A DNA stretch of 64,000 nt, taken from the IMG/VR virus record IMGVR_UViG_2695420914_000005. The stretch is one strand, 5' to 3'. Positions 15,901-21,900 of the stretch are shown here, in pieces. The position numbers were made by a program. The first letter of the stretch is position 1; every line of letters starts with the position of its first letter. Origin of the DNA: a virus. Lineage: Duplodnaviria; Heunggongvirae; Uroviricota; Caudoviricetes.

Positions 15901-18900
15901 AATCCTCTTTAAATGGCGCGTAAACCGCGCCATTTTATTAAGCCCGATAACAATTTGTTTTCTGCCTTATCTGATTTGTGAAAATGATTTCACTGAAGCA
16001 ACTTAATAAGGAAACCATCATGGGACTTGATATCTATATCGAGACACAGCCTAAAAACGATCTGAATAACGAGGCATCCAGAAAGCAGGTTGCTTACTTC
16101 CGTAAGTTCAATGCGCTCGTTGGGTGGATGGAGCGCAACGTAGGTGAAGTCGAAAATTGTGAGCTTTTAGAATTAACGATGAATGACATTTGTTTTCTGA
16201 AGGCTCATTTGATGCACATAAACGAAAGTAATTGCGAAGAGTACTTGCCTACCCGGGAAGGTTTTTTCTTCGGCAGTCAGGAGTACGATGAAGGTTACTG
16301 GCATGATGTGGGGCAGTTGAAAGAGCTTGTGGAAGATCTGATTAAGAACCACGACTTTCACAATAACAGACTGACCTTCTGCGCCTGGTGGTAAATATGG
16401 GCGATTTCAAGAAACGCCTGAAGGAAAGAGCCGAGATGGTCAGAAAGCAAAACGCCTCTTCTGTCATCAGATACGCAAGGCAGTTTAGTCGCAACAACAA
16501 ATCAGTTGAGGAAAAGATCCTTAGCGTAATCGGTCGATAATTATTAAGGCCATCAGCATTGATGGCCTTAAATGACCATCCTGTTTCCCGCAGGCTAAAA
16601 ACACCAACCTCTTACCTCCAGGCAACCGACAAACCCACCTGTTCCCGTCCGGCTACCGTAACTTTCCACTTTGACGCCTTATTCGTACAACGATAATTAA
16701 CACCAACAAGAAAACAATTTGTTATTTACGATAAGGAATTAATCATGAATTTTATCGCTACTGTAAACGCACCCGCACATGGCAATATCGCTGTAACGTT
16801 TTCTGACATTGAAAAACGAGTACTTGGTGCATGGCGCGACAATGAGACGGTAGAACTGTCAGCACAAGAAAAATGCAATATTGCACGCGACATCATTGGC
16901 AATCGTCGTTACTCGCGGGTATTTGAGAAAGCGTATGTGGTAAATTCTGGATTCGGAACGTTCGTCTTTCCGGTGCGCTCCGGGCGATTCTGCCAGTCCA
17001 AGCTGATTGAGTTCGCTACGCAGATTTCTGTCTGGATTAAAACTCAATCGTCGTTCAAATTTTCCGACGATGAAGCAGTATCGCAGGGGATGCGAATCGC
17101 CAACAATGCAATTAAATGCAAAAATATTACGTATACCGCTGGCGTTGACACATGGAAACTGTTTTGCGCTAACTTTATGCTGAATGTATACGCAAGCAAC
17201 CGCATCCACATCCTTGATGGCGTGTAACTGAGAAGAGGGCCAGAAACGGCCCTTTCTCTATAGCCACCAGCTGCCGCAGGGAAATTTTCAGAAACGGCGA
17301 GGAACGTATTCATGAGCCGACGGGGAACGACCAGGATTTTTTCGGGAAACGGCTGCATTCGCCTTTGTGTAGAAAAAACATCGGGAAGCTGGTGGAATCC
17401 AACCAGCGGTTGTCGGACAGGTGAGCGAGGAAAATTATGATGACTTTCGTCACCTGAGACATCCAGATTTCTTTCGTAGCATAATCACATACGTGATTAA
17501 GTGGTGTGATTATGTGAAAAATCACGCGCACATAATACGCGAGCGGATACAGAACAAAACAAAATGCCGATCCGCACCGACAAATAAACGCGGATCACAT
17601 AGCAAGACTAAAAGCCAATGATTAACCATACTCTATAGCGCAATATAACGCGTTTTAAGCGCGTTAATGTGTTAAGTAATGGGCATGTACTGGTAAGGAT
17701 ATAAAAGCGCGTCTATGGCGTTATTTTGGCGCTTATTTTTATGTTGTTGGAGTGAGTTAAAGACAATAAAAACGCGCCATCATTGGCGCGTTATGGTAGG
17801 TGTATTGGAAACGAAAAAAGCGCCCATAGTGGGCGCTCGATTTTATTTGTGTAAACTGATTTTAAATCCCATTTCTACAAACGCTTTTAACATTAAAAAT
17901 ATATCAGCGTCGTTCACGTCTGCTTTTTTTCGCTCCTGGTCGCTCAATAAGTCAATTTTGCGCGTCGTTTCATCTATAAGCTCGACTGCGCGCCCAGCGT
18001 AACCAGCGATCCCAGCGATGCGATTAACATAATATTCATTATGGACGTTAACGCCAGCGATAAGAACAAACATGATTAAGCTCCTTAAAAAAAATTAAAT
18101 AGAATTTTGAAGTTTTCCGATTAATGCGCTTAAACGTAAGTATTCACGTTTGCGCTTGCAATCTCGCTTGCTGTTAAGCAAATCAGAAAACGTAAAATTT
18201 AATTGGTCGCGTTGCGCGATCAAATCATCGATTAATTCTAGTTTATAAGCGCGATACTTTGCGCGATACTTTGCGCGGATCTTGTCATAGCTGACCATTT
18301 TTAAAGCTCCTTTAAAGCGCCCACTATGGGCGCTTGATTCCATTAATTACGCTTTAAAAGCATCAGCTAAATAATTGTAGAAATCATTCTTGATAAAGCG
18401 ATATTGCTGTGTACCAGCTTTTGCGCTTCCCATTCCTTTGACTTTCTCAACAAGTCCAAGACGTTCGCAAAGATTGATCAACTGGTTGGCTTGAGTATAG
18501 CCAGCGTCCAATTTAATTTCACACGCTTTTTTAGCTTCATTCATTAAATCGAAAACAGCACCATTGGTGAACGTGTCGATCTCGTCGTTAATCATATCGA
18601 TTAAAGCGAATACACGAGATCCAGACATATCAGCGATGGAATAAACGCATTTACCAGATTTAATGGATTTAACCAGATAAACCAGTTTTTCCAGTGAATA
18701 ACTATTAGTCATTGCATCACGGAAAAATACTTCTGGCGCTTGTTTGCTTGCTTTAATTGCATAGTAGAAAACAGAGCATAATTTTTCGTCTTCTACTGCG
18801 TTTACGACGTTGTTGATGAAGTAAGCAAGTTTCGTGGTCGCAGCTTGCATATTTGCTTTGTCTGCTTTAGTGTGCGTACCATTTTTATAATGTTCGTTGT

Positions 18901-21900
18901 ATGTTTGAGTTGCCAGATCTGCTTTTTCGCGCAGCTCGTCGGATACAATAGATGCAGCTTCAATGATGGACTTTTTAGAAATGATAATGTTAGCCATGAT
19001 GATTTTTCCTTATGTAAATTTAAAATTTATTGTCGTTAGCGTCTTCGCTTTCGACGAGTTCAATTATCGATATACGAAAAAAGATTGCAAGTGTTTTTTT
19101 AAAATTTTTTGCAGGGATGAAAGTCCTAGAAATAAAAGCGTGATCGTCGAAGGTGTTCCCTAAATAAATAATCGATTCCGGCTTTAGACCTTATATATAT
19201 TTAGGTTATTTGATTTATAGATATAAAGAAGTGATGTGAAAAATAATAACCGGACTTAGCCGGTTATTAACCTTATAGATTTATTGAACAGACTCTACAG
19301 CCTTACGATTGGTGTCAAATAGCACATCAACGAACTGTGCTGATGACTCGCTAGATTCGCAATCCAACATTGCCCGTTCTTCATTTGCCACTTTCTTACA
19401 CAGTTCCACATTCTCGCCTATCGCTTTTCCTGCTTTTACGGCTGCCGAAAATTGATACATGCAAACTGATACATTCTGAGACGTTGAGCACACGTCATTC
19501 ATCAGCGACTGAATGACAGGCTTATAGTCCATTGCATTTGCTGCAACTGAGCAAAGTAAAAATAATGGTGGTAACAATATCGATTTCATAACTCAAAAAG
19601 GCAAAATTCGTTCAACCCAATCGAACAAAACAACTATTTTTCTACCGTTCTCGACACGTAGTGTAACCTGACAAGCATCTGCGCCTGCTGACACCCCCTC
19701 AATTTCACGGCCATCCGCCATGTACACCCTTATAGATTTGTTTGCTTTGTAGGCTTGGTTGCAAATTGCAAAAAAATCGCGGCGTGATGGCCGATTATCG
19801 ACATAATCAGGGTGAACTGTTAGTCGACCTTTGAAATCGTGAGCGATACTGTCAACCACACCTGATTCAATTGTACTAATGCGTTCAAGTGGGAGCCTTA
19901 TACGATTTTCTTTGTCAAAAGGGGCTGGGCAAAGGTCAACTTTGTTACGAGATGGCATGAGGCCATAAACGTACATGCAAAACGCCTGGCCATCTTCGAG
20001 AGTGACCCTTACAGGAATTTGTTCTCTGCGCCAGAACATCAGTAGTTTTTCAACGTTAGTGTAATCTCGCGGCCAGAGTTCAGCTTGGATACCGTAGGTA
20101 ATATCTTTGGTTGTCATGTCATCACAGAGTTGTTGGCAGAATGTCGATGTCACCAGAATTGCTGGTGAACACCCTGAACGCTTTTGTGTCTCCATTCTTC
20201 AGAGTCGTTTCTCGCTCTTGACGAGCGGGGTTTAGAGCACATAAACCTGCACCTTCAAGAGATGCACCCACAATTAATTCTCCGGCATTTAAATGGAAAG
20301 TCGCTTTTTCGCCTGTAGCCAGTTTTGCGACAGTTTCGCCGTTGATGAAAATGGAAGCATCACATCCAGCTCCTACAAAACCTGTGTCTCTCATTACCAC
20401 CAACGTAGCTGGCGCTGCGCTTTGATACTTGAACACTTTGGCCTGCGGTGCTGGTTTGGCGTCATGGATTGATATTGGGCGTGATTGGCACGCGGTAAGC
20501 ATCAACACTGGTAACGTTAGTAGAGGGAGAAGCGAGTATTTCATGATAGTTTTAGAACAGAAAGTGAACAGTATGGGAGACTTCATCTTTGTCTCCCTAA
20601 TTGATAGCGTGATTATTTTAATCTGTTTAATAGCGTTTCGAGATCTTCCTTTGTCATATTAGAGTTCTCATAGATACGCATGATTTTCTCACGAGTCTTA
20701 GCGGAAGCCCCGACAGAAGATATAACCTTGTCAAAGTCGGCCATTGTCAATTGTTCCAGAATGGTATTTATGACTTCAGCCTTAGACATTTTGATATTTT
20801 TTTCTTTTAGTTTCACTTGAAACTTTCCAAGTTTGTCATTGGCCTTATCAGACAATGCTACCTGACAGTAAGTTGTTTTCTTTTCACTCATAACTAATCT
20901 CGTTTCAGAACTCCAAAATCGAATGCTCCATCAATAGGCAATACACCTTCTGCAAAGCCAGGTGTGGTGTCGATGATGTGTTTTCGCTCATAAGAGTGAG
21001 ACAACAGGTATTTGTTGCTAATGTCAATGAAATCAGTGATAAAACACACGTTTGCCTGATTTTTTTTGGCTCGTAAGCCACGACCGACACGCTGTCTCAT
21101 TTCAACTTCTGCTTTCCCACCACCAGCAAGAATGACCGCACCAACGCTTGGCACATCAACACCGACATCCAGAATAGTCGAGCCTATTAAAACATCTATT
21201 TCACCAGACGCTAAACTATTCAGCTTTGCTTGCCTTGTCGTCTGGTTAGATTCCCCATAGATGAAATCAACTTTAAGACCTGACTCCTTCATCATCTCCA
21301 TCAGGATTTGCCCGTGGCGTTTAAGACGAACCAGAGTCATGCAGTTGAGTGAATGTTGCTTATAAAGCAATGCCTCGCGCACTATGGCCTCGTTACGTCC
21401 CAAATTATACACGATCCCCAACTGATAAGCCTTTTGGTAGGCGGTGCTCATACCAACTCTAAAATTGAGGTGTTTGTTGGCAAGTTCGGCCTTGATTCTG
21501 GCCTCGTCTGGCTTGTAGGCAACTTTATGATAAAGGAAGTACGGCTTTGCCAGAATGCCTCGATCAATCAGGTACTTTTCTGTGACTTTAATTTCAATTC
21601 GCCCGGCCACCGCCATCAGGCGCATGTTGGCTTCCGTCGAATCCTTCATGAACGGCGTGGCTGTAAGCGCCAGACGATAGTCTGCGTTCACACATAATCT
21701 GGCAATGTCATAGAAATTAGAGCCTGAAGACTCATGCGCTTCTTCCAGAATAAGCAGAGACACACTTGAAAGGAAGCGTTTCACCAACTCCCGACGTTTG
21801 AGGTGGTAGCTCTTTTTATCTGGTGTTGCATCGCGTGGTGGTTCTTCAAGGAAACTTGCCAGAGTTTGAACTGTAGCGACGTTGATATGTCGTGATACCT

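Follow-up and report, generated by a model that had tools for sequence, protein, structure and literature searches.

The locus described here lies in a 64,000-nt stretch (hereafter the window) of the Caudoviricetes virus record IMGVR_UViG_2695420914_000005 from IMG/VR, where three leftward genes, here called g216, g67 and g76, are accompanied by two copies of a short hairpin. The initial annotation had placed these genes at 17843-18073, 18095-18298 and 18347-18997 as a compact leftward unit, and RefSeq annotates the same three minus-strand genes on a plasmid with 100% identity to 17400-19400. The 17400-19400 interval was 100% identical to seven Escherichia coli plasmids (109-117 kb). Three phage-plasmids, CMS-2020a, PhiR41_1 and Cyrano, matched the 2 kb around the locus at 92-98% identity, and Salmonella phage SSU5 did so at ~81%. 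Gene order was also as in SSU5, running from a UvsW-like helicase through a small open reading frame (ORF), a lipoprotein and a FljA-like regulator to g216/g67/g76 and then to convergent rightward genes. On the strength of these identities and this SSU5-like neighborhood, the element is an E. coli phage-plasmid of the SSU5/pHCM2/pMT1 type, and the same locus is present on Y. pestis pMT. In the order of leftward reading, the locus contains the following features.

18347-18997, minus strand: g216, a core, family-restricted gene; predicted N-terminal helical bundle and C-terminal winged-helix domain, probable DNA-binding regulator.
18316-18334, minus strand: proximal hairpin; transcript loop UAG, no U-tract, followed by UUUAAAGGAG, the ribosome-binding site (RBS) of g67.
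18307-18312, minus strand: RBS of g67, AAGGAG, 8 nt before the ATG, within a 13-nt box TTTAAAGGAGCTT, a second copy of which stands before g76.
18095-18298, minus strand: g67, variable, encoding a small basic protein of 67 aa (isoelectric point 9.9); phrog_6145.
18081-18086, minus strand: RBS of g76, AAGGAG; no hairpin between g67 and g76.
17843-18073, minus strand: g76, variable, encoding a small protein with subtypes a and b that are ~46-51% identical to each other.
17814-17837, minus strand: distal hairpin plus U6; transcript loop CUA; candidate intrinsic terminator of the operon, flagged by a terminator scan on both strands.
17766-17792, minus strand: putative second, back-up terminator (hairpin at 17771-17792), AACGCGCCA-AUGA-UGGCGCGUU plus U5; 54 copies across the 75 related loci described below.

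The two hairpins were present as the initial annotation had reported, with AGCGCCCATAGTGGGCGCT at 17819-17837, its exact reverse complement AGCGCCCACTATGGGCGCT at 18316-18334, and g67 and g76 bracketed between them. No other match with two or fewer mismatches was found in the 64-kb window (0.18 matches expected), and a scan for perfect hairpins across the window joined to the rest of pECAZ162_2 (~109 kb in total) revealed no further copy. Each hairpin folds at -13.6 kcal/mol (z of about -4.6), the proximal copy 13 nt past the g216 stop and the distal copy 6 nt past the g76 stop, so that both have the stable GC-rich stem-loop downstream of a stop codon that is typical of intrinsic terminators. 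The proximal copy has no U-tract and went unflagged on the minus strand by the terminator scan, and is not classed as a canonical terminator; it is probably a leaky attenuator and/or a 3'-end stabilizer of the g216 message, and in the predicted transcript fold the g67 RBS stays unpaired beside it. On the distal side, the scan flagged 17838-17818 and 17792-17771 on the minus strand, a tandem pair with energies of -13.6 and -30.4 kcal/mol, and the distal hairpin may also stop rightward transcription, as it is followed by CGATTTTATT on the plus strand.

Comparison with relatives revealed that the position behind g216 is a slot whose content varies. We collected 79 IMG/VR loci with g216, of which 75 (window included) could be analyzed across the interval separating the g216 stop from the next conserved gene, and these fell into the following arrangements (HP = hairpin).

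HP-g67-HP: 26 loci.
HP-g67-g76a-HP, the window type: 17 loci.
HP-g76a-HP: 15 loci.
HP only: 8 loci.
HP-g76b-HP: 3 loci.
HP-g67-g76b-HP: 3 loci.
HP-g76b-HP-g76a-HP: 2 loci.
Frameshifted g76: 1 locus.

The slot thus held seven presence/absence arrangements of only two protein families, with at most two modules per locus. A hairpin stood ~13-16 nt past the g216 stop in 75/75 loci, with the canonical GCGCCCA stem in all except three (L040 with one mismatch, L052 with a 4-nt loop, and L078 with a variant stem). In module-free relatives a single hairpin directly follows g216 and is itself followed by TTTTTTCGTTTC or TTTTTTGTTTC (T6), which is why we read the hairpins of the window as copies of the operon's intrinsic terminator stem-loop, with termination and attenuation being predicted from sequence. 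Across all arrangements, a T-run of at least 5 nt stood behind the last or only hairpin in 74/75 loci (reading TTTTT(T)CGTTTC or TTTTTTGTTTC) and some T-run was present in every locus, while nearly all earlier copies were followed by T1-4 and the AAGGA(G)/AAAGGAG RBS of the next ORF, the three loci with g76b only being different. The most divergent IMG/VR relative (g216 at 53% identity) had a variant stem, a distant g67 homologue, a canonical hairpin with T6 and a third hairpin, and a Pectobacterium plasmid (g216 at 39% identity) had at the same position a module-free terminator with an unrelated stem, AATCCGCCA-TTAC-TGGCGGATT plus T-tract. Because these divergent relatives keep a terminator with a different stem, position and terminator character appear to be conserved beyond the conservation of the sequence itself. 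Indel boundaries among relatives fell at the hairpin or at the RBS box, a direct repeat (D18) reading TTTAA(A)GGAGCTT at 18078-18090 and 18304-18316, before g76 and g67, respectively. The repetition of this box before both genes accounts for the lack of a hairpin between them, and recombination between the two RBS boxes could turn the window form into the form with g76 only.

We next place these genes in a wider sample, a tblastn search against 72,556 plasmids, which revealed g216 on 815 plasmids and the adjacent helicase (≥60% identity) on 823. Counts for g216 and helicase ran in parallel across genera (Klebsiella 346/346, Escherichia 228/217, Enterobacter 92/91, Yersinia 62/62, Salmonella 49/49, Citrobacter 25/25, Cronobacter 10/10), and because they track each other in this way, we assign g216 to the core of the SSU5/pHCM2/pMT1 family as a whole. 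Among the 815 plasmids with g216, g67 was found on 517 (63%) and g76 on 374 (46%), so by their distribution these two behave as optional accessory modules. All three proteins were restricted to this locus of the SSU5-type family, on contigs of ~100-115 kb. A chromosomal g76 homologue, P0165, was rejected as an independent insertion site, as it has the same neighborhood with the FljA-like gene upstream and is the single chromosomal case. Truncation or frameshift is common among database homologues of g76 (45-73 aa) and the hairpins of L040 carry point damage, which suggests that in some lineages selection on the optional module has relaxed.

The base composition of the locus was as the initial annotation had described, with a GC content of 0.389 for 17819-18997 against 0.471 for the whole window, placing it at the 1.8th percentile of same-length windows (standard deviation 0.032, about -2.5 standard deviations); the difference is real and of moderate size. 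The lowest-GC zone of the window, and its sole extended zone with 1179-nt windows below 0.40, is the one with window starts 17451-18851, and low GC continues upstream through an intergenic region of 0.30 GC to ~19280. Among the 41 ORFs of at least 180 aa in the window, g216 had the lowest GC and the lowest GC at third codon positions. Taking low GC as a trace of import did not hold up: in 70/70 relatives with full flanks, g216 was low in GC (0.373-0.420, against 0.41-0.51 in the flanks), and because all of them share it, low GC is, by this comparison, an ancestral and stable trait of a conserved gene and no mark of recent import.

Evaluating the orientation of the hairpins further, we found that the 8-bp stem is palindromic, such that 16 of 19 bases are identical either way and orientation is carried by the 3-nt loop alone (TAG or CTA). 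Among 142 hairpin copies, loops mostly came as reverse-complement pairs (CTA 112 and TAG 17; TTA 3 and TAA 1; TTG 2 and CAA 1; TCA 1 and TGA 1), with ATA (3) and GCAA (1) lacking a partner, and ~14% of copies (20/142) held the rarer member of a pair. Eight groups of loci with identical 40-nt flanks on both sides differed in the loop, and seven of the eight contained an exact reverse-complement pair. The 17 loci with the gene content of the window comprised six with CTA in both copies, six with one copy flipped (five of them as in the window) and five with point-mutated loops, and in SSU5 and Cyrano both copies have the same orientation. The second terminator (CGCGCCA-N4-TGGCGCG; AACGCGCCA-N4-TGGCGCGTT) flips too, with counts of ATGA 8/TCAT 8, TTGT 21/ACAA 8 and TTGA 3/TCAA 1. 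A change from CTA to TAG takes three substitutions or one inversion, and template switching is documented to invert the loop that joins the two arms of a perfect hairpin (PMC8794818, PMC8604942). The likeness here is that the loop turns into its exact reverse complement with stem and flanks intact, and that this recurs in independent lineages and in two hairpins. Hairpin loop inversion is also known from non-coding hairpins of chloroplasts. What differs from the documented cases is the very short evolutionary distance, the notable frequency and the setting in terminator hairpins of a plasmid-phage, and the mechanism is assigned by analogy. Opposite orientation, as claimed initially, therefore stands as a literal description of the sequence, but it comes down to three loop nucleotides whose flip recurs in relatives; judged from these comparisons, the "inverted copies" are direct duplicates of one terminator, one of them with its loop flipped, and no inverted terminal repeats of a mobile unit. 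Separately, other terminator-like hairpins of this element share stems (AGGCGTC...GACGCCT three times and TTAAGGCC...GGCCTTAA twice, at 2613, 4949 and 6088 of pECAZ162_2, locus L083, and at 7549 and 16544 of the window), and terminator stems may commonly be reused in this genome.

Upstream of g216, the following elements were identified.

19063-19090, minus strand: candidate sigma70-type promoter of the g216 operon from a consensus scan, TTGCAA-N16-GATAAT, preceded by an A-tract.
19032-19055, minus strand: conserved interrupted palindrome/hairpin in the 5' untranslated region (UTR), GTCG-AA-AGCG-AAGA-CGCT-AA-CGAC.

The -35 CTTG and the -10 GATAAT were invariant or nearly so in an alignment of 13 diverse relatives. 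For the 5'-UTR palindrome, 91% of cells in 13 related sequences were paired, two pairs were changed on both sides, and covariation was 0.109 against 0.054 after shuffling (0/500), which is suggestive evidence for pairing; the element could act as an operator in DNA or as a structure in the RNA, and it or the promoter region is possibly a target of the FljA-like protein. Three conserved AT-rich boxes lie upstream of the promoter (19125-19205, within the promoter region 19032-19205, minus strand), and a regulon search with these boxes and the 5'-UTR element showed them to be unique to the g216 promoter within the window. The consensus scan revealed no promoter-like site between g216, g67 and g76 or beside either hairpin, so the three genes are most likely co-transcribed. 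As to when this happens, RNA-seq of E. coli LF82 lysogens carrying Cyrano (PMC9928086, S1 table) placed CYRAN_113 and CYRAN_112, the homologues of g216 and g76, at the detection floor during growth in lysogeny broth (LB), with log2(5+FPKM) of 2.32-2.78 (FPKM, fragments per kilobase per million), and with just a modest rise in macrophages (PMC9928086). By these data the operon is off in the plasmid-prophage state and is no moron in the sense of PMC9928086, and such silence speaks against expression from a resident prophage in the service of exclusion or defence. The operon may still act in the early lytic phase.

The initial annotation had seen no recognizable motifs, and our searches of Pfam, NCBIfam, PADLOC and PDB sequences with g216, g67 and g76 likewise returned nothing above threshold; PHROGs gave one family per protein, two without assigned function and one (g67) mislabelled. 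Structure prediction provided more, with an N-terminal five-helix bundle and a domain of winged-helix fold in the g216 model and a ferredoxin-like fold in that of g76. Matches in BFVD were limited to domain-level winged helix-turn-helix hits for g216, for which neither a full-length structural relative nor a match to the five-helix bundle was found there. We consider g216 most likely to be a DNA-binding regulator on the basis of this model. It can be compared, by its predicted fold, with winged-helix DNA-binding proteins of the MarR/ArsR/PadR/TubR type and the winged-helix domains of Cdc6/ORC, but lacks sequence-profile membership: g216, distant members included, matched nothing in Pfam, NCBIfam or PDB sequences, MarR/ArsR/PadR profiles among them, and a sensitive profile search from the g216 alignment recovered just 23 clusters among 1.84 billion representatives, the distant members being without domains. 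In contrast to those proteins, the g216 family is tiny and limited to SSU5-type phage-plasmids, and its five-helix bundle has no counterpart. The g76 model is of modest confidence (pLDDT, predicted local distance difference test, 68.8), with a ferredoxin-like/ACT-like beta-alpha-beta-beta-alpha-beta fold and no Pfam match. For g67, we rejected the label "MIT family metal ion transporter (CorA)" carried by SSU5_119 of SSU5 and by phrog_6145; because the 67-aa protein has no transmembrane segment (maximum Kyte-Doolittle value 0.06 in a 19-residue window), no GMN motif and no CorA Pfam match, the label is untenable for what appears to be a soluble basic protein.

Taken together, we consider it likely that a duplicated terminator stem-loop bounds an optional small-gene slot behind the core gene g216 in a single leftward operon. 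The sigma70-like promoter (19090-19063) would drive g216, with only promoter and 5' UTR falling outside the 17819-18997 interval of the initial annotation, and a GC-rich stem-loop of 8-9 bp would stand right behind g216, serving with T6 as a plain intrinsic terminator in relatives without modules. In the window, g67 and then g76 would sit between two copies of this stem-loop, of which the proximal one would have lost its U-tract and run into the g67 RBS, probably attenuating transcription and/or protecting the g216 message at its 3' end. The distal copy, which keeps its U-tract, would together with the second terminator 27 nt further on end the operon against the convergent rightward genes. 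The presence of two copies would be due to gain and loss of RBS-ORF-hairpin modules by recombination at short repeats (hairpin and RBS box), and the proximal copy would have undergone a 3-nt loop inversion, a frequent and neutral mutation of the template-switch type in perfect hairpins. Several observations weigh against parts of this explanation. A covariation test on the hairpin stem was not significant, and its seven core pairs never vary, meaning that the sequence itself is conserved, which is equally compatible with a protein-binding palindrome. The junction of g67 and g76 had no hairpin in 20/20 loci with both genes, so modules do not always come with one hairpin each, and for g67 the true junction may be the RBS box. 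Further, the hairpin was rejected as a mosaic breakpoint, as identity profiles of L041, L045 and L035 against L006 put the junction ~115 nt inside g76 (L041 against L006 being the only resolved breakpoint), leaving the indel boundaries to carry the case for a hairpin role in recombination. Finally, the Cyrano RNA-seq cannot show whether the proximal hairpin attenuates transcription and was set aside for this purpose; its values lie too close to the floor and disagree from one condition to another, and it may not be strand-specific.

The initial annotation had proposed instead that the three genes are a separately acquired accessory cassette, such as one with an anti-defence, exclusion or antirepressor-like function. 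Read as one island that is bracketed by inverted repeats and moves as a unit, this would fit the lowest-GC zone of the window, proteins without known domains and the variation of g67 and g76 between relatives, and small variable ORFs of phage early regions are often involved in host takeover or anti-defence. The AT-richness, the compact leftward build and the optional nature of g67 and g76 are the parts of the proposal that survive. Against the rest, g216 is core and syntenic in 815 plasmids with ancestrally low GC, the repeats enclose g67 and g76 and leave g216 outside, and the three genes are no single unit; conserved core status, which the initial annotation had paired with a known role as a sign against its cassette, was found for g216, but a known role was not. 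The orientation of the repeats is a loop-flip polymorphism (direct in SSU5, Cyrano and 6/17 loci of the same type), inspection revealed no target-site duplication beside them, the RefSeq neighborhood holds no adjoining transposase or integrase gene, and all three proteins are limited to this one locus. The proposed functions found no support either, with PADLOC giving no match for g76, g67 or g216 and the Cyrano homologues silent in LB-grown lysogens, against exclusion from the prophage. We therefore regard an acquired island as improbable. To a similar degree improbable is that the palindrome GCGCCCA-N3-TGGGCGC is a DNA site for a dimeric protein (e.g. g216), acting as operator, roadblock or boundary element, even though at least 142 copies share the same 7-bp half-sites around a 3-nt spacer that is free to vary, no significant compensatory change was seen in the stem, and it always lies beside the gene for a predicted winged-helix protein. 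The unrelated neighboring terminator has the same invariant stem and flipping loop, making this pattern generic to these hairpins; moreover, a T-tract always stands on the transcriptionally downstream side of the terminal copy, a terminator with a different stem is found here in distant relatives, the site lies at a gene 3' end away from the promoter, and there are no copies elsewhere in the element, where a regulon would predict them.

Two further readings give the hairpin a direct part in recombination. It is very improbable that the palindrome is a hairpin-forming recombination hotspot at which RBS-ORF-hairpin modules are captured, duplicated or shed through template switching in replication or the action of a nuclease that processes hairpins, with g216 as a possible guide; if true, the locus would be a minimal cassette-exchange device without an integrase and loop flips would be a by-product of hairpin extrusion. 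Least probable to us is a dedicated single-strand recombination site of the integron attC type or the IS200/REP type (insertion sequence, IS; repetitive extragenic palindrome, REP) serving recombinase-driven cassette capture and excision. Promoterless small ORFs that each close with the same inverted repeat do resemble a cassette array, indel boundaries fall at the hairpin or adjoining RBS box, and a tyrosine integrase is encoded elsewhere on the plasmid. However, there are only two protein families with at most two modules per locus, the 19-25-nt perfect palindrome has neither the 57-141-nt imperfect attC structure and GTTRRRY core nor a REP-like GTAG, no integrase or Y1 transposase gene adjoins, modules are not found outside this locus, and simple recombination at short direct repeats accounts for the indels. 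Likeness to attC cassettes is thus restricted to promoterless small ORFs in one orientation with an inverted-repeat element behind each; an adjoining IntI, the imperfect bipartite R''/L''-L'/R' structure and more than two cassette families are all lacking, as is any sign of excision. The locus also does not have the build of an IS or a miniature inverted-repeat transposable element, the arms being palindromic, orientation residing in the loop only, no direct repeat lying outside the arms by inspection, and modules occurring at one locus.

A duplicated terminator bounding an optional slot is closest to arrangements already known from other phages. With intrinsic terminators, including tandem and bidirectional ones, the hairpins share a perfect GC-rich stem of 8-9 bp and a 3-nt loop, and the distal side adds U6, a second hairpin with U5 and a convergent junction; the proximal copy differs in having the same stem with no U-tract and an RBS behind it, and the terminator role of both copies is a prediction. 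In T4-type phages, promoter-early stem-loops (PeSLs) mediate modular shuffling of small ORFs (PMC2839356, PMC4122927). As there, a repeated stem-loop terminator here flanks small, non-essential variable ORFs and indels between close relatives end at the motif. Unlike PeSLs, the hairpin is joined to no strong sigma70-like promoter, and the repeated unit is a hairpin with an RBS, present as two copies at one locus (~109 kb) with two ORF families rather than as dozens across hyperplastic regions, in a temperate siphovirus-type phage-plasmid without mini-circle evidence. Classical morons are expressed from the prophage. Those of lambdoid phages, reportedly described by Juhala et al. and by Hendrix et al. 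in 2000, are said to be extra genes with their own promoter and terminator between conserved genes. The resemblance lies in small extra genes that stand between a conserved gene and a terminator, vary in composition and presence, and are each closed by a terminator-like hairpin, whereas g67 and g76 lack their own promoter, are by prediction co-transcribed with g216 and, going by the Cyrano homologues, are silent in LB-grown lysogens. The locus is hence a further example of known phage architecture, combining terminator-bounded small-gene modules (PeSLs, morons) with hairpin loop inversion; it is ordinary for a phage genome and not a newly acquired mobile island.

Some features of the neighborhood deserve mention. 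The FljA-like protein (window 19593-20195, minus strand) is conserved family-wide and matches Pfam Flag1_repress with an E value of 2.5e-84, with a weak Hfq-like match at its C terminus. FljA is an mRNA-binding repressor of phase-1 flagellin. Expression of CYRAN_114, the Cyrano homologue, was seen in lysogens, and the protein may change flagellin expression in the host or have phage-plasmid mRNAs as targets. Between this gene and g216 lies an ORF of 102 aa (19281-19589, minus strand) with an apparent Sec signal peptide, MKSILLPPLFLLCSVAANA, which is present in some relatives only and so is another variable insert, with its own terminator hairpin at 19244-19269. On the other side, 17228-17760 is a conserved ~550 bp between the convergent operons without a convincing gene (RefSeq calls just a 50-aa ORF) that contains many GCGC-containing hairpins and minus-strand terminator-like sites at 17597-17568, 17541-17525 and 17454-17439; it might encode small RNAs. 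No Rfam match was found for 17228-17760, and Rfam and tRNA scans gave no credible match. Farther away, RefSeq records metG, a full-length methionine-tRNA ligase, on the phage-plasmid (L001 1-1843; NZ_CP019013.1 40093-42126; approximately window 9209-11242).

For the biology of this family, these observations mean that the orientation of a short perfect palindrome can be the state of an often-flipping 3-nt loop and is here no evidence of inverted terminal repeats or mobility. A 2025 preprint surveying phage-plasmids makes no mention of the g216/g67/g76 locus, and existing annotation lists its products as hypothetical or mislabels them as a CorA-type transporter, an error that is likely to propagate through the g67 family. 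The locus itself occurs in more than 800 sequenced Enterobacterales plasmids, including Y. pestis pMT and Salmonella elements of ~106 kb. As a core, lysogen-silent gene with a predicted winged-helix protein, g216 is a defined knock-out candidate for control of lysis/lysogeny or early genes in SSU5-type elements, and the slot that follows it gives searches for small accessory functions a definite target.

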